From an uncultured Campylobacterales bacterium (GTDB lineage Bacteria > Campylobacterota > Campylobacteria > Campylobacterales > CACVAW01), in the NCBI GenBank assembly GCA_902727925.1, contig CACVAW010000044.1, forward strand, positions 15,111-79,110: a stretch of DNA of 64,000 bases, written 5' to 3'. Every line of letters starts with the position of its first letter. Position 1 is the first letter of the stretch. The translations under genes and the position numbers were made by a program. Shown here piece by piece: positions 2,789 to 54,837 of this stretch. The notes below the pieces were generated by a model, which saw nothing but the letters and a program-made list of their open reading frames with translations, was not told the DNA's origin and made no database searches.

Positions 2789-4093
2789 TTATTTTAATCC
2801 TGCTTTTTCTCTGAATATTTTTTCTAATAACTTATTTTCAATAAGAGACATTTTTACAACAGGGATTAGTCCTCTTTCTTGATATAGTTTAAAGTGATCT
2901 GCTGGATTTTTACCTGATTGATAAGCTTCCATATAAATTACTTGTGAAACTTCTTGATCATTTACTTCTATAGATTCTTTTTTAGATAGTTCGTCTATTA
3001 AAAATGTCATTTTTACATTATTTTCAGCTTCTTCTACAAATTCAGTTCTTAGTTTTTCTACTGCTTCTTTGTCGTTTGAGAGTTTTTTGATTTCGTCTTC
3101 TGATTTGCTCTGCAAACTTCTATTAAGTAGGTTATCAATTTCTTTTTCTATGATTGCTTCAGGAAGATCAAATTTATGATTTTTTACAAGGTTTTCTATA
3201 AACTCAGGTCTTACCTCGTCTGCAAATACACCGTTTAATTCTTGATTTTGAAGAGATTGTTCGATATCTTGCTTTAATTTTTCTATTGTTGGGTTCTCTA
3301 CATTTGGTAGAAGAGTTTTAAGCTGCTCTTCATTAAGAGTTTCTGGAAGCTTTTTAGTTTGGATATTATTAAGAGTTACTTTAAAAATTACATCTTTACC
3401 AGCTAACTTCTCAGCTCCATATTCAGTAGGGAAAGTTACATTTATATCTTTACTTTCACCTTTTTTCATACCTACCATTTGCTCTTCAAATCCTGGGATG
3501 AATGTATTACTTCCAATATCAAGTGAATGATTTTGTGCACTTCCACCCTCAAACTGTTCGTCGCCTAAATATCCAGCAAAATCCATTACAGCTATATCGC
3601 CATTTGCTAACTTTGCAGAATCTTCGGCATCTGAGATTTCAGCAAAATTTGAATAATAATTTTTAAGATTTTCTTCTATCTTTTTATTATCTACTTTTGG
3701 TACTTTAATTTCAGGTATCATAGACTTATAATCGCCAAGTTTTACTTCTGGTCTAATAGAAATTTTGAATTCCATGTCTATTTTGTTGTCGTTGTTTTCA
3801 AATTTATTAAATACAGCGTCACCAATAACATCATTTTGAGTGATTTTTAAATCCTCAATAGATTTGCTAAGTACTTGTGAAAAAAGCTCTTGATTTCTTT
3901 GAGTAAGTATTTGTTCTTGATATGTTTTTTTTATTACGTTTAAAGGTACTTTACCTTTTCTAAATCCATCAATTTTAGCAGTTTTTGATAATGAACTTGC
4001 TATTTTGTTTTCTGTATTTTCTATAGTTTGTGATGAAATTTCTGCAACTACTACTGCATTTGCGCTATCTTTTCTAGTTGAATTTACATTCAT
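2789..4093 (-). CDS. tig: trigger factor
   Basis: 434 aa. FKBP-type PPIase core (GDIAVMDFAGY, FIPGFEEQMVGMK). Immediately upstream of clpP. Confidence 0.9.
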   Translation of the reverse strand: MNVNSTRKDSANAVVVAEISSQTIENTENKIASSLSKTAKIDGFRKGKVPLNVIKKTYQEQILTQRNQELFSQVLSKSIEDLKITQNDVIGDAVFNKFENNDNKIDMEFKISIRPEVKLGDYKSMIPEIKVPKVDNKKIEENLKNYYSNFAEISDAEDSAKLANGDIAVMDFAGYLGDEQFEGGSAQNHSLDIGSNTFIPGFEEQMVGMKKGESKDINVTFPTEYGAEKLAGKDVIFKVTLNNIQTKKLPETLNEEQLKTLLPNVENPTIEKLKQDIEQSLQNQELNGVFADEVRPEFIENLVKNHKFDLPEAIIEKEIDNLLNRSLQSKSEDEIKKLSNDKEAVEKLRTEFVEEAENNVKMTFLIDELSKKESIEVNDQEVSQVIYMEAYQSGKNPADHFKLYQERGLIPVVKMSLIENKLLEKIFREKAGLK

Positions 4094-17728: not shown

Positions 17729-18211
17729 ATGCAAAAAATGATTCATGAAAAATATTGGAAAGAATTAGAATTAGTACTACCTTCAAACAAGTTTGATATG
17801 TCACGTCTTAAAAAAGCCTATGTCTTTGCTGACAACGCTCATATCACGGATAAACGTAAAAGTGGCGAACCTTATATAATGCATCCAGCTGCAGTTGCCA
17901 AAATTGTTTATGATCAAGAACTTGATGAAGACTGTATCATAGCAGCTTTCTTGCACGATACAGTAGAAGATACTGATACTAGTATTGAAGAGGTTGAATC
18001 AAGATTCACTCCAAGTGTGGCAACCCTAGTTGATAGTCTTAGTCATTTCACAGAAGCTCTTAATTCAAATGATATAAAAGATGTAAAAACTCTAAGAAAG
18101 ATACTGTTTTCTATGAGTAAAGATTTTCGTACGGTATGTATAAAGATAGCAGACCGTCTACACAATATCTCAACTCTGCAATATATGCCTAAAGACAAAC
18201 AAATCCCCTAA
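17729..18211 (+). pseudogene. truncated RelA/SpoT-family HD (ppGpp hydrolase) domain gene
   Basis: 160 aa with hydrolase motifs RKSGEPYIMHP, FLHDTVEDT and IADRLHNISTL. It stops about 10 codons after DRLHN, where full-length SpoT continues (IA-ET..., synthetase, TGS, ACT). No continuation is seen in any frame downstream. Confidence 0.65.
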
Positions 18212-18571
18212 ATCTTTCAAGACCTTTAATAAACATGAAAATATAAACTACAAACCAACATCCCCAAAAACCAAAAAAAAGTTAAAGAATTTTTTCCTTT
18301 TGATGTCCAAAAAACCTAAAATAAAAAGAATTCCAACCCAAATAATGTTTAAGTTTTCTAACATAATAGTACCTTCATTAATAATCTACTTTTTGATATA
18401 GATATATTATACCTCATAAGTTTTTTTATTCTGTTAACTGGTTTTCTCAAACCTGCTTTAAAATAGAGTCTTTGAATTGCACCTTCTAAATAAAAATGTA
18501 CTATCCTCTTTGTTCAGAAGGCTCACTTTAACTTTAGTAAAAGTTGGCGAAATAAAATTATATTTAGAGAC

Positions 18572-18781
18572 TCAAACCTCTGTATTTGCTAATTCAATTA
18601 ATTCTTTATCTTTAAAAAGTAGATTATTAATCATTTGTCCTAAATCTGTATTTTGTTTTTTTGCTAATTTTGCGAAAAAATTTTCTACTTCGGGTTCAAG
18701 ATAAATAGGTATATGAAAGTTGGCATTTTTATTATAAAACTTTCCTCTTTCTCCATTTGAAAAATCGTATTCTTTTTTCAT
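18572..18781 (-). CDS. brnA: BrnA-type antitoxin
   Basis: 69 aa. EYDFSNGERGKFY...IPIYLEPEVENFFAKLAKKQNTDLGQMINNLL matches the BrnA/CopG-like antitoxin pattern. Starts 4 bp downstream of the brnT stop. Confidence 0.7.
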   Translation of the reverse strand: MKKEYDFSNGERGKFYNKNANFHIPIYLEPEVENFFAKLAKKQNTDLGQMINNLLFKDKELIELANTEV

Positions 18782-18785
18782 AAAT

Positions 18786-19079
18786 TTAACCTTTTATATA
18801 TGCTTTTTGCTCATTCTTAGTTGCTTTTCTAGCACTAATAATTCTTATATTAAAGTTGTTCTTATTCACTAATCTAAATGTATGAATGACAACTAAAGTT
18901 CTAGTTTTAAAGTCCATCCCAAGAGTAATCCATCTATCTTCTACAAGACTATGTTCTTCATCAAAAATGGAAATAGCATTTTTATCTTTAAACACAGAAG
19001 TAGCATCTTCAAAACTAATTCGATGTTTTAAAAAATTACTTTTTGCTTTATTAAAGTCCCATTCAAAATTATAATTCAT
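18786..19079 (-). CDS. brnT: BrnT (DUF497) family toxin
   Basis: The track ORF is 18786..19133. The likely start is the internal ATG at 19079, giving MNYNFEWDFNKAKSNFLKHRISFEDATSVF...RIISARKATKNEQKAY. This is the classic DUF497 FEWD...KH..SF...IISAR pattern. Confidence 0.75.
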   Translation of the reverse strand: MNYNFEWDFNKAKSNFLKHRISFEDATSVFKDKNAISIFDEEHSLVEDRWITLGMDFKTRTLVVIHTFRLVNKNNFNIRIISARKATKNEQKAYIKG

Positions 19080-19399
19080 CAACAACCCTATCATAAGCTT
19101 ATAACTATTATATCTAATAAATTTGAATGTCATAAAAATTGAGTTAAAGTAAAGTTTTGGGTTGCTGAAAAGTTACTCAATATAACTTCAAAAAAAATAA
19201 ACATTAAAATACTTTAAATTTGGTAATTTATAATAGTCTATATATTTTATTGGTTAAAACAATATCCACTTTTATATCTTTCTTTTAAAAAGAAACAAAT
19301 TCATTACTTTTTGGTAACAAAAAAGTAAAACCTTGTGCTTGCACTCTCTGTGAGAAAAATAATCACGGCTTCAGAGTTTATTTGAGTACAAATAAATAC

Positions 19400-19522
19400 C
19401 TAAAAAGAGTGTATAAAATAAATCAATTGCGGAACTCATAATAGAGATATTGCTCCCAGCAATACCTCTTATTACTCAAACAGTCCTCATTTTGATAGAT
19501 TGATTTTATACACTCTTTTTAG
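19400..19522. repeat. 123-bp inverted-repeat / long imperfect hairpin element
   Basis: Arms CTAAAAAGAGTGTATAAAAT (19400-19419) and ATTTTATACACTCTTTTTAG (19503-19522) are perfectly complementary over 20 bp. After a one-sided AAAT bulge the pairing continues as CAAT/ATTG. An apical stem GAGATATTGCT-ccc-AGCAATACCTC lies at 19444-19468. Confidence 0.7.
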
Positions 19523-19749
19523 CTCTTGCAGATGTGAGAGTGAGAAAAAAACCTCAAATATAAAATCTTTATATCCCAATTTTTAGCGTTTATAGAGTGA
19601 ACAAAAAGTATAATAATTCCGTTAAGAAATTCAAATTGTTTGAGTGAAGCGAGTTTTTGAATTTTAGGAATTATTATGTTTTTTGTGAGTTTAATTTTGT
19701 ATCCAAAATCTCTATAACTAGCGAAGAGCTTTTTTTTAATCTTTTTTGT

Positions 19750-19800
19750 CGAGGAGCAAAGGAAATTCAAGCCTAAATGGCTTGGAGTAAACTTTGTGAG
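19750..19800 (-). repeat. 51-bp repeat, copy 1 (partner at 54714-54764 in inverted orientation)
   Basis: Read on the minus strand: CTCACAAAGTTTACTCCAAGCCATTTAGgcTTGAAtTTCCTTTGcTCcTcG. The first 28 nt are identical to the partner, then 17 of 23 match. Confidence 0.75.
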
Positions 19801-19873
19801 TAAAGATTAATTTAATTCGTAAAACCTTCTTATACATTTAGGTACAAAATTTTTACTCTCTTTTCAAAAGTAA

Positions 19874-20713
19874 CTAAGAATATTTTAAACTTTTTACTAG
19901 AGTTTCTAGCTCTAAGATTCTATTAGAATTAATAGCCACCCCTATATTATTTGGAATTTGTGTGATTGGCATTGGTATATTGGAGGTCGGCGCGGTCACT
20001 ATCTTTATTTCTCCTGTAGCAGTATGCATCGCTCCTGCATAATGAATACCCAGCAAGAAGATTCGATTCCCTACCATAATTGTGTTACCTCTACTATCCA
20101 TATACCCCCCTATGTTCGCTAAAAATACGGGGGATCCACTTGAACCGGGAAAGCTAGCAATATCTGTTAAAAATTCAGTATTTCCATTCCACGAAATATT
20201 AGTATGCGTGGCCGTTATACCTTTACGGATGACCGGAAGGTTATTTTTGGAGTCCCATATTCCATTTGGATATCCGATCATTACTATTTCTTCCATGGAA
20301 GATAGGTCAGAACGAATACTATCACTTGGAATCAAACTAATTGGGAGTGCCATATAAAATAATTTATCTCCGCTAGCTTTCACCTGATTTAAGAGAGGTC
20401 CTATAGGGAAAACAGCCAAATCAACCTTTGGGTCAGGATGTAGTACGCACTGATCTTCAAAATTTTCAATTTGAAATTGTTGATGGCTCCCCAAATTTGG
20501 TGCTCCATCGTCTCCTGCTGTAGTTACATGAAACCTACCAAGTTGCGCACCAGCAATTACATGCTTATTGGTAACTATCACAGGAATACTCGAATCCCCA
20601 TTTTGAAGAAAATTCATATAGAAACCTGTACCAGTAGAATTACCACCATTACGAAGAATGGTTTCAATTCTAACTGTACTATGAACTAGCTGTTCAATGG
20701 GCCCGAGATTCAT
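19874..20713 (-). CDS. cytoplasmic trypsin-like (S1 family) serine protease
   Basis: 279 aa. The His/Asp/Ser triad appears in order (VTNKHV, VDLAVF, GSSGSPVF). No signal peptide, TM segment or PDZ domain. The DNA is conspicuously GC-richer than the flanks. Confidence 0.85.
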   Translation of the reverse strand: MNLGPIEQLVHSTVRIETILRNGGNSTGTGFYMNFLQNGDSSIPVIVTNKHVIAGAQLGRFHVTTAGDDGAPNLGSHQQFQIENFEDQCVLHPDPKVDLAVFPIGPLLNQVKASGDKLFYMALPISLIPSDSIRSDLSSMEEIVMIGYPNGIWDSKNNLPVIRKGITATHTNISWNGNTEFLTDIASFPGSSGSPVFLANIGGYMDSRGNTIMVGNRIFLLGIHYAGAMHTATGEIKIVTAPTSNIPMPITQIPNNIGVAINSNRILELETLVKSLKYS

Positions 20714-20886
20714 AAATCACCTTCTTGCATAACTAGTGATAATAATATACTTTGCATAATATCACTTTCCTTTTTGATTTTAAACTATAGAATAGTATTT
20801 TCATTTTTTATTAAATTATCTGAATTATATTCAATTTACTGTATATATTAGTCTATATATTATGATATTAAAACATATTATACTAG

Positions 20887-21021
20887 TTATTAATATTTAG
20901 GATTATACTTTTAGATATTGTAAGTGATAAAATTAGAGTAAAACACTATAACCCTCAAACTGAAAGATCTTATATTGAGAGATTCTTAACTCATCTTATT
21001 CTTAAAAAGAAGTTGAGTTAA
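20887..21021 (+). pseudogene. N-terminal remnant of a tyrosine recombinase (IntI/phage-integrase SAM-like domain)
   Basis: Start-less open frame ...LLDIVSDKIRVKHYNPQTERSYIERFLTHLILKKKLS*. It resembles the conserved LLD-VR--IR-KHYS-RTE-AY--WI-RFI-FH N-terminal signature of integron-type integrases. It stops after about 44 codons, and no catalytic domain follows. Confidence 0.5.
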
Positions 21022-21040
21022 AGCCCTTTGAATTTTTGAA

Positions 21041-21610
21041 TTAACTTTTATCTATAAAACTCTTAATCTCATCAAAAATACCCTCAACACTTCTTTTAGC
21101 ATCAATCACAACATAATCAATCCCCAAAAATTCCAAAACCTTTATCATATTCTCTTGTATAGATAACAAATACTCTATACCTCTAAGCTCTATCTTATCA
21201 TGAGACTTTTTTGAAAGTCTTGTATTTAATTCATCTTTATCTAAGCTAAGAAGTATCACTTTATCAGGTAGCTTCCCATCTAAGCAAAGCTTATTTAAGT
21301 TCCCTAGCATTTCTAAGTCATCAAAGTTTTGCATCGCATAGGCGATACCTGAGACAAGCCCTCTATCACTTATTACAAAATCATTAGGCTCAACAACTCT
21401 TTTGTAATGTTCTGCTCTATCAGCTAAGAATAAAAACATTTCACAAACGCTACTTTTTATGTCATTTTCTAATACTAGGCTTCTTATGGTTTTACCTACA
21501 TTAGTTCCACCTGGTTCTTTTGTGAAGACTGCGTTTTTATATTCTTGCTTTAGTAGTTCTATTTGTGTGGATTTTCCTGCTGTGTCAATTCCTTCAAGAA
21601 TTACATACAT
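21041..21610 (-). CDS. tmk: thymidylate kinase
   Basis: P-loop ILEGIDTAGKSTQ and the DR motif (SDRGLVSGIAY). 189 aa. Confidence 0.9.
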   Translation of the reverse strand: MYVILEGIDTAGKSTQIELLKQEYKNAVFTKEPGGTNVGKTIRSLVLENDIKSSVCEMFLFLADRAEHYKRVVEPNDFVISDRGLVSGIAYAMQNFDDLEMLGNLNKLCLDGKLPDKVILLSLDKDELNTRLSKKSHDKIELRGIEYLLSIQENMIKVLEFLGIDYVVIDAKRSVEGIFDEIKSFIDKS

Positions 21611-22227: not shown

Positions 22228-22650
22228 ATGGACAAGCAAACAATATCAATCATCAAAGCAACTGCTCCTATTTTAAAGAGTAAAGGAGAAGAGATAACTA
22301 CACAGATGTATTTTCTTCTTTTTAATAGATATCCAGAAGTAAAAGAGCTTTTCAAGAATGCTGGCAAAGATCAATACAAAAAACTTGCAAATGCGGTCTA
22401 TGCCTATGCTGCAAATATTGACAAACTAGAAAACTTAGAAAAAAGTATAGCTACAATAACATCTAAGCACGTTGAGACAAACATCAAGCCTGAACACTAT
22501 CCACTAGTAGGAGAATGTCTAATTCAAGCTATCAAAGATGTACTTAAAGATGATGCTACAAAAGAAGTTATAGATGCTTGGAGTAATGCTTATACATTTC
22601 TAGCTGATGTATTTATAGCAAAAGAAAAAGGGCTTTATGAAGCTAAGTGA
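22228..22650 (+). CDS. cgb: single-domain bacterial haemoglobin (Cgb-like)
   Basis: 140 aa. Globin fold with TKHVETNIKPEHYPLVGECL (proximal His region). Size and context match Campylobacter Cgb. Confidence 0.8.
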   Translation: MDKQTISIIKATAPILKSKGEEITTQMYFLLFNRYPEVKELFKNAGKDQYKKLANAVYAYAANIDKLENLEKSIATITSKHVETNIKPEHYPLVGECLIQAIKDVLKDDATKEVIDAWSNAYTFLADVFIAKEKGLYEAK

Positions 22651-23260
22651 AGTACTTAAAAAAATAGAGTTTTTTTCACACTTAGATGATCATGAGTTAT
22701 TAGAGCTTGAAAATATTTCATCTTTATCTAAATATGTGAAAGATCAATCTGTATTTACCCAAGGTGACAATAATACCCATCTGCTTATATTAGTAGATGG
22801 GTCTGTGAATGTCTATAAAAGTGATGACAAGGGAAACCAAATAATAATAGGTACATTTAAACCATACTCTTTTATAGCCGAAGCAGCAACCCTAAATAAA
22901 ATACCTTTTCCATCTTCTTGTATATTCACAAGTGCAGGATATATACTAAAAATAGATTTAATAAAGTTTGAAAAGATGTTTTTATTAAAATATAGAGTCT
23001 CATACGAAATAATCAAATCACTACTAAGCAAGATAGACCTACTTCAACAAAATATTCATTTCAACCTAGCTTCAAACTCAAAAGATAAAATTTTGTATTT
23101 CTATAGCAAAAACGAAGACTTACAAACAAAACTAAAACAATATGAAATAGCTTCTATACTCAATATCACACCAGAAACACTATCAAGAAACACAAACAAA
23201 CTGATAAAAGAAAAAAAGCTAATAAGGATAGGAAGCCTTTATAAAGTCAACAAAAACTAA
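22637..23260 (+). CDS. Crp/Fnr family transcriptional regulator (NssR-like)
   Basis: N-terminal cNMP-binding beta-roll (FFSHLDDHELLELE...) and a C-terminal HTH (YEIASILNITPETLSRNTNKL). It lacks the N-terminal Cys cluster of Fnr. Overlaps the globin gene by 14 bp. Confidence 0.8.
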   Translation: MKLSEVLKKIEFFSHLDDHELLELENISSLSKYVKDQSVFTQGDNNTHLLILVDGSVNVYKSDDKGNQIIIGTFKPYSFIAEAATLNKIPFPSSCIFTSAGYILKIDLIKFEKMFLLKYRVSYEIIKSLLSKIDLLQQNIHFNLASNSKDKILYFYSKNEDLQTKLKQYEIASILNITPETLSRNTNKLIKEKKLIRIGSLYKVNKN

Positions 23261-23869: not shown

Positions 23870-24148
23870 TCACGCAGATATCTTAATTTCGAGACCAAAA
23901 GAAGAAATTATTTTATTAATAGTTTCAAATCCTGGTTTAGCTCCATTATTAAATACTTTATATAAACTTTGTCTTCCTAGCCCAGAATTTTTAGAAATTT
24001 CACTCATACCTTTTGATTTTGCCACATTACCTAAGGCTTCCAAAAATTCATCCATATCACCATCTTTTAAAATTTGTGATAAGTATTCTGATATAGATTC
24101 TTTACTATCTAGATATTCAGATAAATCAAATTTTGTTATTTTATGCAT
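23870..24148 (-). CDS. HigA-family addiction-module antidote protein (HTH)
   Basis: 92 aa. The pattern DLSEYLDSKESISEYL...GMSEISKNSGLGRQSLYKVF is typical of the TIGR02684-type antidote. Overlaps the upstream toxin gene by 8 bp. Confidence 0.75.
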   Translation of the reverse strand: MHKITKFDLSEYLDSKESISEYLSQILKDGDMDEFLEALGNVAKSKGMSEISKNSGLGRQSLYKVFNNGAKPGFETINKIISSFGLEIKISA

Positions 24149-24398
24149 AAATTAACTCCTCTAAAACTTTCTTTGCTTTAGCAATGTCTTTAGTTTGAGT
24201 AGACTTATCTCCACCTACTAGTAATACAACTATACTGTCTTCTTTTTTTGTATAGTATATTCTATATCCGGGACCTACTTTAACCCTTAGCTCAAATAAA
24301 TTGCTAGATATGGACTTATAGTCTCCAAAATTACCATTTTTAATTCTATCAATTCTTCTTAATATTGATATACGAGCTTTAATGTCTTTAAAAGCCAA
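24141..24398 (-). CDS. RelE/ParE-superfamily addiction-module killer protein
   Basis: 85 aa. The pattern ...RIDRIKNGNFGDYKSISSNLFELRVKVGPGYRIYYTK...VVLLVGGDKSTQTKDI is typical of TIGR02683-type toxins. Confidence 0.75.
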   Translation of the reverse strand: MAFKDIKARISILRRIDRIKNGNFGDYKSISSNLFELRVKVGPGYRIYYTKKEDSIVVLLVGGDKSTQTKDIAKAKKVLEELIYA

Positions 24399-24515
24399 CT
24401 ATTAAATAACTCCGTCTTATATATATTCATATTGTATCTGATTGGAGACAAAAAGTCAAAGTATTCATTTTTAAGTTATACATTAATTTCTAGAAGAACT
24501 TCTACAGTTCTTCTT

Positions 24516-50615: not shown

Positions 50616-51629
50616 TTAGTCTTGAAATTTTTGTTTTATATCTTCCATTACTTTTTTATCAAAGTCTGATTCTATTTTTTGAGTTTTATTGAACTTATCA
50701 TATTCATTATGAGCTTTTGTCTTAGCTTTAGCTTTTGATATTTTACCATTATCTTCAAGTATTTCATATTCATTGAATTCTAAAAACTTATTTACACTAT
50801 TAGCTACTTGCTGCATAGTAAAGTCTGTTTTATTTTCTATTAGTCTTTCTATATAATCAAAATATCCAGATATTGCTCTTTCTAAGCTTTTGATTTCATC
50901 TTGACTTAGATAGTTTTTAGCTATTATTGTATCTGATTTTAGGATTCTACCCTTTGGAGAATTTTTCCAGTTTGTCATACCCATATATGGTTTTTTGTTG
51001 TCTACTTTTTTATATATTATTTCAGATGCCGTATGTCCTGTGATTGCATAGTGGAATTTATTTTGTATAGTTGCGTAGAAATTTGTGCTTATTTCTGAGT
51101 GTTTGTTATAGTCTCTTGTACATTCAGCAAATATATCTGTGATTTGTTGGTATATTCTTCTTTCACTTGCTCGTATAGAACGAACTCTTTCAAGTAGTTC
51201 TTTAAAGTAGTCTTTACCAAAGTATTTTTTACCATGGGCTAGCCTATCATCATCCATAGTAAAACCCTTGATGATATACTCTTTTAGTACATTAGACGCC
51301 CATATACGAAATTGTGTAGCTTGTAATGAATTTACTCTATATCCTACTGATAGTATTGCATCTAAGTTATAAAAGGCAATATTTCTTTGAACTTCTCTAT
51401 TACCCTCTGTTTGAACTATTAGGAAATTCCTAATAGTTGAATCTTCTTTTAACTCTTGGCTTTTATAAATGTTTTTTAAATGTTCATTTATCGTTGCAGT
51501 TTGCACTCCAAAGAGTTCAGCCATTCTTTTTTGTGGTAGCCATACATTTCCATCACTTGCTAATATTTCTACTTTTATCTCATCATTAGGTGTAGTATAG
51601 AGTAAGAACTCAGATATCTTATTTTGCAT
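50616..51629 (-). CDS. rhuM: RhuM-family virulence/Fic-associated protein
   Basis: 337 aa. The N-terminus EFLLYTTPNDEIKVEILASDGNVWLPQKRMAELFGVQTATINEHLKNIY is the characteristic RhuM opening. Overlaps the upstream R-M gene by 11 bp. Confidence 0.8.
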   Translation of the reverse strand: MQNKISEFLLYTTPNDEIKVEILASDGNVWLPQKRMAELFGVQTATINEHLKNIYKSQELKEDSTIRNFLIVQTEGNREVQRNIAFYNLDAILSVGYRVNSLQATQFRIWASNVLKEYIIKGFTMDDDRLAHGKKYFGKDYFKELLERVRSIRASERRIYQQITDIFAECTRDYNKHSEISTNFYATIQNKFHYAITGHTASEIIYKKVDNKKPYMGMTNWKNSPKGRILKSDTIIAKNYLSQDEIKSLERAISGYFDYIERLIENKTDFTMQQVANSVNKFLEFNEYEILEDNGKISKAKAKTKAHNEYDKFNKTQKIESDFDKKVMEDIKQKFQD

Positions 51630-54612
51630 TTGAAGTTTCCTCTACTATTCTTATCTCATCATCATTTAGATTATAGAGTTTATAGACCATAGTATCTATT
51701 TCATTTGTAGAGTTTTGGATTTTTGTTTCTAGTTTTTCTATCTCTTCTTTTATTTCTATTTTTTCTACTGGATTAAGAGTATCAATATGCTTATTATATT
51801 TTTTGATTGTTTCTTTTGATTCTAAGATAGTATCTACTAACTGGATAAATGGCTTTTGTTCTTCTTGTGATACTTTTGGAATGGGTATTTTACCAACACC
51901 ATTTTCAAAATATTCATAAATACCATTTCCAGTTTGCTTTCCTATACTCTTATATCTAAAATTTAAAGTTTTAGAGTTTAGTAATGCTAATAAGTATCTT
52001 AAATCTAAGTTTTTATTTGTATCAAATATTACTGTTGTATTTGTTAATCCTATGTATTCATTTGTATTATCAAAACAAAAAATATTTTCTTTTGATCTAT
52101 AGGAACACCAAATTTTATCTAAACTATAGAAGTTCTTATGCATTGGACGACTATATTTCCACCAAACCCTACCTTCATTTCTTACTGTTGCTCTATTATC
52201 TAAAACTTTTTTATTTTCAATTAAATGATTTTGAATAGATAATGGTAGGTCTACAAAACTTTGAGTATCTTCAAAATATAAAATATACTCTTTCAAACTA
52301 TTTATTTCATATTTTTTTATTATTTCTCCACTCATTCTTTTTTTAATAAATTCTTTTGGAAATTGACTTGGATATTTTTTGAATACAAATTGTTTATTAG
52401 CAGCAGTCTCCATGCCTTTACCAATTTTAAAAGTTGTTTTTAACTTCGGATAATCACTATCTATCTTATCATTTATTGCACCTATTTTTTTGTCTACAAG
52501 TGCAAAAACATCATCTTTTTTTAAATTAAGTTCAAAATAATTATTTTCAAAGTTTATAAAGTTTGATATAAAGTCTATATCGTAATTTTTATTTTTAAAA
52601 GAATATGCTAATGTTTTCTGAGTTAATGTTTTTTTATCAAGTTCAATAATTGCAGTAGTAACTGAAGCATCTTCAAAAACCATATATTTTTCAAAATTTA
52701 TAATTTTTGAAATGTTTATATTATCTAATATATAGTTTCTTAATTTTTTTGCTTTATCTGAAAATAAAAAAGCATTTGAAACAATAAGGACAACTTTATT
52801 TTTTGTAAGTTCAATTGCTTTAGCTATAAAATAAAATATTATATCACTTTTATCTTGCCAAACTTGAGGGTAATTATTTTGTATTGATTCAGCAATTATA
52901 GATTTTGCTCCTAATGTTTGAATATTAAAATAAGGGGGATTACCAATAACTACATCAAAACCACCCCTTTCAAAAACTTCTCGAAACTCATCTTCCCAAA
53001 CAAAAGCTTTATCACTAACACTTTTATCATCTATTAAGCTATTACCAACTTTTATCTTCTTACTTAAGTTTGTGAGCTTTTTATCTTTGGTGGCAGTTCT
53101 AAGCCATAAGGATAGCTTAGCAATCTCTACTGCTGCTTCATTGATATCTACTCCGTAGAGGTTGTTTTCTAGTATGCTTGTTTCTATTTCGTAGTATGCT
53201 GTGATATCTTCCATCACTACTAGCTTTTTTTGTAGTGATTTGTGTTCGGATATTAGAAAGTTTAGAGCTTGGTTTAGGAATGCTCCACTACCACACGCTG
53301 GATCTAGTACTTTTAGGTTTAGTAGGTAGTTTCTATATATTTCAAGATTTTGTTTTGTGCGTTGTTCTTTTTGGGTTGGTTTCTTGGGATTTTTGGGAGG
53401 TGTGATATCTTCTATGTTTAGCTCTTCTTTTTTAGCTTCACATAGCTTACCTAGTGTATTTTGTACTATGTAGTCTGTGATGTAGTTAGGAGTGTAGAAT
53501 ACTCCATCTTTTTTTCTTTTGCCTTTTTTGGTGTCGAAGTCTTGGTTATCTATACTAGCTTGTATCTCTTCAAGCTCACTTATGGAGTTTTCGAATATAT
53601 GGCCTAGTATGTTTACACTCACATCACTAGCAAAATCATAGCTTGAGAGTCTGCTTGGTAATTCATTTAGTATCTCACTATCTATTTTTAGACTATCAAG
53701 CTCTATATCAGGTGCAAATAAGCCTCCGTTGTAACCCTCTTTGATATCTAGCTTTTCATTTCCTTTATCTATAGCTTGGAAGTAGATTTTGTAGAAGTAG
53801 TATAAGTCTTTATTGTCCCAGTCATTTTTGTACTGTTTTATGATTTTGTCTATAGTGTAAGGTTGAAGTAGGTTTGTATCTTCTGCAAATAGTATGAAAA
53901 TGATTCTATCACATAGCTTTTGAGTGAGTTTTAGGACTTGGGATTTGTTTATATTTGGGTTATTTATGATGATATTATCAAATAAGTTGTTTCTAAAATT
54001 TGAATAGATTTTGTACACTTCATTTGATATTTGTGTTTCGTGGTTTTGAGTTTTTTGTTTGATTTGTAGAGGTATAGCGTCTTTGATACTTTCATAGCTT
54101 AGTATGGTGTGTAGTTTTTTAAAACCCTCATAGTCTAATTCAAAAAGCTCAAATCTTTCATAAGATGTTTTCTTGTCTATATAAAATCTTAGCTCATTGA
54201 AGTTCGATATAATTATATATTTTGAGTTGGAGTGTGAGTTATGGTAGTTGAATGCTTGTGATTCTATTTTGTCTAGGTTTTGTGTGTTTTGTGCTTTTAG
54301 TTCTATTACACCTGTTACTTTGTCATCTAGGTATATAACTCCATCTGCTTTTTTTGTATCGTTTTCATTCTTTTTTTCTCGTTCTAGGTTAAAGTTAGAT
54401 GGGTTTGTAATATCAAGGGTATAACCTAAACACTCTTCAAAGATATCTTTTAAAAATCCATCTTGGTATTTTTCTTCTTTGAGTGTCTTTATGTAGTCTA
54501 TTTTTTCTAAAAACTTTTGGTAATTGTTGTATCTTATAGCGATTAAATTTTCATTTTGTTTAGTGATATATGTTTGAAGTACTTTTTTATTAAAAATAGG
54601 GTTATGGTTCAT
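51619..54612 (-). CDS. type IIG (Eco57I-like) fused restriction endonuclease / N6-adenine DNA methyltransferase
   Basis: 997 aa. N-terminal PD-(D/E)xK-like ADGVIYL...GVIELK...IIISNFNELRFY. SAM motif I VLDPACGSGAFL. Catalytic motif IV VIGNPPY. Long C-terminal target-recognition region. Confidence 0.85.
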   Translation of the reverse strand: MNHNPIFNKKVLQTYITKQNENLIAIRYNNYQKFLEKIDYIKTLKEEKYQDGFLKDIFEECLGYTLDITNPSNFNLEREKKNENDTKKADGVIYLDDKVTGVIELKAQNTQNLDKIESQAFNYHNSHSNSKYIIISNFNELRFYIDKKTSYERFELFELDYEGFKKLHTILSYESIKDAIPLQIKQKTQNHETQISNEVYKIYSNFRNNLFDNIIINNPNINKSQVLKLTQKLCDRIIFILFAEDTNLLQPYTIDKIIKQYKNDWDNKDLYYFYKIYFQAIDKGNEKLDIKEGYNGGLFAPDIELDSLKIDSEILNELPSRLSSYDFASDVSVNILGHIFENSISELEEIQASIDNQDFDTKKGKRKKDGVFYTPNYITDYIVQNTLGKLCEAKKEELNIEDITPPKNPKKPTQKEQRTKQNLEIYRNYLLNLKVLDPACGSGAFLNQALNFLISEHKSLQKKLVVMEDITAYYEIETSILENNLYGVDINEAAVEIAKLSLWLRTATKDKKLTNLSKKIKVGNSLIDDKSVSDKAFVWEDEFREVFERGGFDVVIGNPPYFNIQTLGAKSIIAESIQNNYPQVWQDKSDIIFYFIAKAIELTKNKVVLIVSNAFLFSDKAKKLRNYILDNINISKIINFEKYMVFEDASVTTAIIELDKKTLTQKTLAYSFKNKNYDIDFISNFINFENNYFELNLKKDDVFALVDKKIGAINDKIDSDYPKLKTTFKIGKGMETAANKQFVFKKYPSQFPKEFIKKRMSGEIIKKYEINSLKEYILYFEDTQSFVDLPLSIQNHLIENKKVLDNRATVRNEGRVWWKYSRPMHKNFYSLDKIWCSYRSKENIFCFDNTNEYIGLTNTTVIFDTNKNLDLRYLLALLNSKTLNFRYKSIGKQTGNGIYEYFENGVGKIPIPKVSQEEQKPFIQLVDTILESKETIKKYNKHIDTLNPVEKIEIKEEIEKLETKIQNSTNEIDTMVYKLYNLNDDEIRIVEETSNAK

Positions 54613-54713
54613 ATGATGTTTCTTTGTGTTTTTGTTATTTGTATTTTAGCCTTTAAGGTTTAGAGATGTCTATTGATATTATACTTCATATAGTAAATAT
54701 AGATAATGTTAGA

Positions 54714-54764
54714 CTCACAAAGTTTACTCCAAGCCATTTAGTATTGAACTTCCTTTGTTCTTGG
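54714..54764 (+). repeat. 51-bp repeat, copy 2, abutting the 3' end of tRNA-Ala
   Basis: CTCACAAAGTTTACTCCAAGCCATTTAGtaTTGAAcTTCCTTTGtTCtTgG. See copy 1 at 19750-19800, which is in inverted orientation. Confidence 0.75.
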
Positions 54765-54837
54765 TGGAGACAAGGGGGTTCGAACCCCTGACCTATGCAC
54801 TGCCAGCGCATCGCTCTCCCAGCTGAGCTATGTCCCC
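54762..54837 (-). tRNA. tRNA-Ala (anticodon GGC)
   Basis: Hand-folded cloverleaf: GGGGACA-TA-GCTC-AGCTGGGA-GAGC-G-ATGCG-CTGGCAG-TGCAT-AGGTC-AGGGG-TTCGAAC-CCCCT-TGTCTCC-ACCA. It has the G3:U70 alanine identity pair, a TTCGAAC T-loop and an encoded CCA. Confidence 0.9.

Follow-up and report, generated by a model that had tools for sequence, protein, structure and literature searches.

The window analysed here is a stretch of 64,000 nt from an uncultured Campylobacterales bacterium (assembly GCA_902727925.1, contig CACVAW010000044.1, positions 15,111 to 79,110), within which a region of low coding density (18212–21040; ~49 %, or roughly 1.4 of 2.83 kb) lies between a truncated spoT-type gene and the thymidylate kinase gene tmk. 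The right end of this region is probably the wreck of a chromosomal integron, of a type common in low-GC metagenome contigs, a reading to which we assign a probability of about 0.6. It is made up of a short relic of the integron integrase gene, intI, from which three genes read away: a protease of the candidate defence family PDC-S45 and a BrnT/BrnA toxin–antitoxin pair (BrnTA). The locus is a heavily eroded case of a known element, and no new class of element is indicated. An earlier note on this DNA had left open a different kind of gene-capturing element, a suggestion to which nothing found here points; the relatives of the relic are canonical integrons.

The relic (20905–21033, + strand) corresponds to codons ~5–71 of a 322-codon gene and, judged by the homology searches given below, is a genuine remnant of intI. 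Its start-less, stop-free frame (20887–21021, +) comprises 44 codons and closes at a premature stop (21019–21021), with homology to IntI running past this codon up to 21033, 8 bp short of the tmk stop. Alignment with related integrases (MAFFT and tblastn) resolves two conserved blocks, the first of which, LLDIVSDKIRVKHYNPQTERSY, pairs with LLDIVRDKIRVKHYSxSTERTY of the relatives, and the second, IERFLTHLILKKKLS, with IEQFLTHLAVxKKVS, the two being set apart by a gap of 23 residues. There is therefore an in-frame internal deletion of 23 codons (69 nt) in addition to the missing start codon and the early stop, leaving about 48 codons that display 72–84 % nucleotide identity to related intI genes.

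An integrase-like stub had already been suspected at this edge from the sequence, and its assignment to the integron-integrase type is borne out by profile and database comparisons. A hidden Markov model (HMM) of the clade, built from 51 full-length relatives and searched against 1,555 stop-free fragments of ≥20 aa from all six frames of the window, returned the stub as its sole significant match (E = 6.9e-8; runner-up E = 0.21). When the 44-residue stub was compared by phmmer with 1.84 billion representative proteins, eight matches at E ≤ 1e-3 were obtained, seven of which are PF13495 N-terminal domains aligned from profile position 1; for these seven the top NCBIfam model is TIGR02249, ‘integron integrase’ (positions 1–85 of 315). 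The concern that the peptide might lack any significant match to a tyrosine-recombinase N-terminal domain is thus laid to rest by both the clade HMM and phmmer, although the Pfam model taken alone stays below threshold (PF13495, 20.1 bits, E = 9e-4, against a cutoff of 27 bits). A sequence search of the PDB with the stub gave no match. The PF00589 catalytic domain and the IntI-specific C-terminal insertion are missing, with only residues ~5–71 of 322 left in the window, and neither alignment of full-length relatives nor the clade HMM located further parts of the gene elsewhere in the 64 kb.

The relatives of the relic were gathered by a metagenome scan using an alignment of the IntI N-terminal domain, which yielded at least 508 loci, 80 of them being kept for comparison. 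Most related intI loci derive from one Joint Genome Institute (JGI) metagenome set and have a GC content of 25–40 %. Approximately 50 of the 80 carry a full-length intI of 322 aa, and the five full-length relatives tested on TIGR02249 score 412–421 bits (cutoff 265). Eight clear sites from related loci were used to seed an attC alignment and covariance model, the consensus fold of which is the classical R″/L″–L′/R′ hairpin, with 9 of 22 pairs covarying. Across the 80 loci 73 attC sites were found at E ≤ 1e-5 (43–88 bits), every one of them (73/73) on the opposite strand to intI; single loci hold up to eight or more. Furthermore, a conserved GTTGAAT-containing motif, which is probably attI, is situated 213–252 bp upstream of intI in 11 loci. 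By their integrases and attachment sites, these relatives are canonical integrons.

Two size classes of attC occur within this clade, of ~68–70 and ~130–136 nt (L079, L087, L121 and L129; e.g. L121 4218–4353), with the longer class harbouring a large insertion in the terminal loop. One integron, L076, which is otherwise AT-rich, contains a GC-rich element of ~180 nt (1261–1440), placed after the putative attI motif and ahead of the first cassette. The element has no Rfam match, and its 3′ end is also present in L074 (~4036–4060); searching L074, L076 and L134 against Rfam returned nothing.

The BrnTA pair is, as its placement amongst attC sites indicates, a recurrent cassette of the related integrons. 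BrnT-like genes lie on the opposite strand and upstream of intI in six of the 80 loci (L074, L075, L076, L093, L116 and L134), with BrnA-like genes detected in L074, L076 and L134. In three cases (L076, L093 and L116) attC sites stand on both sides of the BrnT/BrnA-like genes, and in L074 an attC follows BrnA. Toxin–antitoxin pairs are classic integron cassette cargo (PMC8618304). Within the window, BrnT and BrnA share the cassette strand and lie no more than 1.8 kb from the stub, and both are the genes that the earlier note had named. BrnT (18786–19133, −) matches PF04365 (E = 9e-26, 90.4 bits, cutoff 34.5), its true start probably being the internal ATG at 19079, which gives a form of 97 aa (E = 5.5e-26 to the same family). 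At the amino acid level it shares 45 % identity with the cassette-borne BrnT of L076, and 67.6 % over 182 nt at the nucleotide level. The BrnA-like antitoxin (18572–18781, −; 69 aa) begins 4 nt after the brnT stop and has no direct match in Pfam; it is identified by its 39 % identity (E = 7e-11) to the BrnA of L134, which itself matches PF14384 and PF12441. The toxin-first order, the 4 nt gap, the strong BrnT domain and a BrnA of ribbon–helix–helix type all agree with the known BrnT/BrnA type II system (PF04365, PF14384), from which the window pair differs in having a short antitoxin of 69 aa whose divergence puts it beyond the reach of Pfam. The module still looks functional, with BrnT presumably acting as an RNase toxin that BrnA, as its antitoxin, restrains.

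All three genes (protease, BrnT and BrnA) occupy the − strand and point away from the + strand stub, confirming the integron layout of intI facing one way and the other genes the opposite way, although layout alone is not proof of cassette origin. As there is no attC or attI in the window, cassette status is something that we infer for these genes rather than something demonstrated. The earlier proposal of an integron with toxin–antitoxin cassettes is accordingly upheld in part, for BrnT/BrnA-like genes are situated upstream of intI in six loci of the relatives, three of which have attC sites on either side of them, but the window itself has neither attC nor attI.

Decay of this kind is seen elsewhere in the clade, with a broken intI in at least 16 of the 80 related loci. 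The locus L134 (6701–9171), a decayed integron in a metagenome contig, is a direct parallel to the window locus: its intI is cut to 130 aa, and there follow a glyoxalase-like gene, a VapBC-like pair and BrnTA, beyond which come apaH and prmC, with the sole attC-like site scoring 14.7 bits. Using the definitions of IntegronFinder (Cury et al. 2016, PMC4889954) for a complete integron, for In0 (a recognisable intI without attC) and for CALIN (at least two attC without intI), the window locus fits none of these, its intI regions on which that program relies being deleted and no attC being present. As IntegronFinder recognises IntI by profiles of its catalytic and C-terminal parts, it would report nothing at this locus. 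The same study describes 15 CALIN with nearby intI pseudogenes (PMC4889954). With these and with L134 the window shares a broken intI, retained toxin–antitoxin modules and adjacent housekeeping genes, whilst its relic is far shorter (about 48 codons, against 130 in L134) and is accompanied by no attC, where L134 keeps its 14.7-bit site. Compared with sedentary chromosomal integrons more generally, it has the IntI-family N-terminal domain, the divergent genes, the toxin–antitoxin pair and relatives that head canonical attC arrays; it differs in being without the catalytic domain, the IntI-specific insertion, attI and attC, and so stands beyond the In0 state.

Several observations weigh against an integron origin, amongst them the missing recombination sites. 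With filters off, two covariance models built from the clade’s own attC sites (R1 and R2) peak at 13.5 bits (E about 3) in the window, at unrelated positions, and give no more than 9.5 bits (E > 1) when the search is limited to 17.6–21.1 kb; genuine sites of the clade score 43–88 bits on these models. Strict and relaxed regular expressions find no RYYYAAC/GTTRRRY core pair in the region, in agreement with the failure to see such cores earlier. The attI motif of the clade, TATTYAAYGAACATTATA, does not occur in the region even when 3 mismatches are allowed, and the protease start is ~190 nt from the expected intI start, as against 213–252 nt for attI in the relatives. Beyond the sites, the window BrnT is just 45 % identical to cassette-borne BrnT, and BrnTA is also known outside integrons; no PDC-S45 homologue was found in the 80 related integron loci; and in no relative does intI lie beside tmk. 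With attI and attC missing, gene capture or excision is impossible now, and the platform is dead.

The places where such sites would be expected were also inspected individually. The divergent intergenic spacer (20714–20904) is the expected location of attI and of promoters, and an alignment with nine related upstream regions confirms that the clade attI motif is missing from it. The best promoter-like site (20930–20902, −; 10/12 matches) is within the relic and faces the protease, promoter-like sites being no commoner in the region than in shuffled sequence. At the other end, an AT-rich non-coding stretch (18212–18571) separates the spoT fragment from brnA, where a BrnTA cassette would carry its attC; the best score here is 6.9 bits, which is not significant, and the stretch folds no better than shuffled sequence. 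Downstream of brnA it contains a hydrophobic open reading frame (ORF) of 38 codons, MLENLNIIWVGILFILGFLDIKRKKFFNFFLVFGDVGL (18248–18364, −). A further attC candidate (19178–19266), beside a 30-nt match to a cassette end in L138, was rejected as it does not fold (z = +0.6), and Rfam gives only noise at E ≤ 5 across the region.

The interval separating the protease from BrnT holds two adjacent hairpins. The larger is an imperfect palindrome of 133 nt (19395–19527), with 33-nt arms that are 88 % complementary and a DNA fold of −29 kcal/mol (z = −7.5), making it the strongest local hairpin of the window; the hairpin element reported in the earlier note thus exists, but spans 133 nt and not 123. 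The smaller (19601–19686; 86 nt) possesses 20-nt arms that are 90 % complementary (z = −6.9) and is the second-cleanest local hairpin of the window. In size they are roughly comparable to the two attC classes of the relatives, but they fail the attC models, which give 8.7 and 7.1 bits for the 133-nt palindrome and 7.9 bits for part of the 86-nt hairpin. The larger could be a decayed attC. A bolder explanation is that both attC-sized hairpins are working, divergent sites, using TAAA/TTTA in place of TAAC/GTTA, and are served in trans by an integrase encoded elsewhere. That no other local hairpins in the 64 kb are as clean, and that both sit exactly between the two would-be cassettes, at sizes near those of the relatives’ sites and with the model aligning the larger from end to end, speaks for such non-canonical capture. 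Its standing is diminished, though, by scores of 7–9 bits with E > 1 even in a 3.5 kb search, by the expectation that in DNA of 75–80 % AT the cores TAAA/TTTA would arise as the model’s best approximation, and by each hairpin being single-copy, with none such in the 80 related loci. The AAC/GTT triplets are an invariant feature of attC. Working sites of this sort are consequently regarded as extremely unlikely.

The protease gene (19874–20713, −) encodes a cytoplasmic trypsin-like serine protease of 279 aa (Trypsin_2, PF13365, E = 3e-11), in which motif reading places the catalytic triad at H51, D98 and S192. Its GC content of ~39–40 %, compared with ~25 % in the flanks and ~30 % for the window as a whole, agrees with the GC-rich protease that was named at the outset. 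The PADLOC profile PDC-S45 is matched almost throughout (378.9 bits, E = 3e-114; residues 1–275 on profile positions 11–285 of 293), and there is a match to phrog_7688 with E = 6e-65. Homologues with 47–51 % identity are found on viral contigs of IMG/VR, three of the four copies being at most ~1.3 kb from a contig end; in L062 the homologue adjoins an AbiEii-like ATPase and a HigB toxin. No integrase was identified amongst the ten ORFs scanned around these viral-contig homologues. PDC-S45 has been reported in prophages, and the literature treats the family as a hypothetical system (PMC12429752). The near full-length profile match, the motifs of a trypsin-like fold and the homologues on viral contigs are as expected for this family, which is a candidate for defence, here and elsewhere. 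The gene product, a predicted Ser-His-Asp enzyme of the cytoplasm, belongs to what may be a single-gene anti-phage family, and it still looks functional.

These properties bear on a second explanation, in which the intI relic is real, but BrnTA and the protease landed independently in a recombination-prone, non-essential spot, with their orientation being coincidental; the result would be a small defence and addiction islet at a synteny break. The distinct GC content of the protease, together with homologues that are on viral contigs and not in integron arrays, is in keeping with this, as is the lack of attC or attI in the window. Likewise, a HigBA-like pair and a crp gene with a globin gene are found in a nearby block when it is compared with L054, so that the genome gains such genes without integrons. 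Set against these points are the BrnT/BrnA-like genes upstream of intI in six related loci, the presence of both window genes on the cassette strand less than 1.8 kb from the stub, and L134, which has reached the same end state and is demonstrably integron-derived. Independent insertion of all three genes is therefore considered possible, yet unlikely.

Downstream of the protease lies a 51–52-bp repeat (19750–19801, +), which contains a terminator-like stem on the − strand. The repeat recorded in the earlier note does exist, with its second copy falling beyond the region (54713–54762, −), inverted and 35 kb away, where it starts exactly at the 3′ end of a tRNA-Ala(GGC) gene (54762–54837, −). 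The two copies agree fully over their final 31 nt, and one Logan contig (L052) ends within the repeat. Both copies border defence genes, namely the PDC-S45 protease at one, and an MmeI-like restriction–modification enzyme with RhuM at the other. The latter islet (50616–54612, −), beside tRNA-Ala, consists of an MmeI-like type IIG restriction–modification enzyme of 997 aa, with Eco57I, MmeI_Mtase and TaqI_C domains, and after it a RhuM-family protein of 337 aa. The repeat may serve as an att site, or else anchor recombination between the two defence islets, although the orientation and spacing of its copies do not fit a simple island.

From this a third explanation can be drawn, that the repeat is the att site of an island at tRNA-Ala, the region being a displaced or rearranged piece of that island and the stub its integrase. 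The exact abutment to the 3′ end of the tRNA gene, the 31 identical nucleotides and the defence genes at both copies would accord with it. Against it, the copies lie 35 kb from each other in inverted orientation, rather than as direct repeats bracketing an island; the repeat contains no tRNA sequence; its core is absent from IMG/VR, where a 29-nt segment was searched for; and the stub belongs to the integron-integrase family, with no second recombinase of its type in the window. That family is not known to use tRNA-flank sites. A tRNA-linked island is thus thought very unlikely. Similarly slight is the chance that either the hairpins are live non-canonical sites or the repeat marks the movement of defence genes between a tRNA-flank hotspot and the former integron site. 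An apparent inverted repeat of ~70 % complementarity (18056–18143 and 19830–19936) was set aside, as it is not significant after multiple testing; its local-alignment score of 18 was reached in 3 of 500 shuffles, as well as in 3 of 300 segments of real sequence.

On the left of the region is an HD-domain ORF of 160 residues (17729–18211, +; PF13328, E = 2e-30), which covers positions 1–130 of the 687 in TIGR00691. It retains the catalytic HD and DRLHN motifs and ends 14 codons past DRLHN, as had been noted, with the synthetase, TGS and ACT portions missing. Full-length SpoT proteins align to 17756–18205 and to nothing else in the window, which makes the ORF a true 5′ fragment of a long gene of RelA/SpoT type, and the window contains no second gene of that kind. 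A protein search with the ORF listed only matches of under 280 aa, the length of listed matches being apparently capped, and exact-protein look-ups for it, for the response regulator and for the 115-aa BrnT returned nothing. Scanning species-representative genomes with this ORF gave matches of at most 48 % identity, all in other phyla, and no close relative. As the fragment has its own start and the HD/DRLHN hydrolase motifs, it could still work as a small alarmone hydrolase.

On the right, tmk is intact (21041–21610, −; PF02223, E = 3e-35) and begins a conserved tmk-coaD-ubiX block, with synteny in L054–L058. Homologues of Tmk place the window in Campylobacterales: the best match is 63 % identical, and the named matches are Campylobacterota or Campylobacterales metagenome-assembled genomes. 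The nearest relative found, L054, displays identities of 85 % for the aconitase-like protein, 81 % for CoaD, 74 % for UbiX and 63 % for Tmk, and has the order aconitase-ubiX-coaD-tmk, next to which come a small membrane protein and then glnA; in more distant relatives hisS comes after tmk. On the other side, argD-OEP is followed in L143 and L144 by a Methyltransf_28 gene and not by spoT. In none of the relatives found are the argD-OEP and tmk-coaD-ubiX blocks adjacent. The stretch of ~17.7–21.04 kb hence joins blocks that are not neighbours elsewhere, and the synteny break includes the spoT fragment. The description of the region as an interruption of housekeeping synteny is right in that synteny breaks here, but not in its implication of flanks that are otherwise contiguous; nor do relatives share the segment as conserved core, with L054 and the more distant relatives carrying other genes after tmk.

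Within the aconitase-ubiX-coaD-tmk block, which is contiguous in L054, the window has a globin and Crp-family regulator pair (22228–23260, +). The same block is split by an HI1420-type antidote gene (23870–24148, within ~23870–24400, −), upstream of which Logan contig L052 has a called Gp49/HigB-like partner. In two read sets (ERR3801603 and ERR3801542) Logan contigs show 100 % identity across the junction between the spoT fragment and BrnA, and Logan contigs are likewise 100 % identical over the protease–tmk junction. The junctions being seen in two read sets, the arrangement is not an artefact of one assembly. A replication terminus at the region was considered and rejected, as GC skew tracks gene strand only.

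The deletion that took away the remainder of intI stops at the 3′ end of tmk. If the right end of the region is the wreck of an integron, the genes reading away from the stub would occupy the place of the cassette array. BrnT/BrnA would then very likely be a two-gene cassette of the lost array, with the PDC-S45 protease being either the first cassette or a later insertion. Deletions on the other side would have taken the attC sites and may have reached into the spoT-type gene. The persistence of BrnTA is plausibly owed to addiction, as loss of such a pair would be costly (cf. PMC8618304).

The understanding of how integrons work is unchanged by this finding, the value of which is mainly in annotation and natural history. 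The relic is recognisable although the parts of intI used by integron finders are gone, and standard tools would miss it; the N-domain profile of the clade IntI, together with the clade attC models, could recover other relics. For the organism, most of the spoT-type gene may be gone from the genome, barring a further copy outside the window. Finally, the finding bears on where candidate defence genes settle, a PDC-S45 protease and a BrnTA pair being present at a probable integron wreck.

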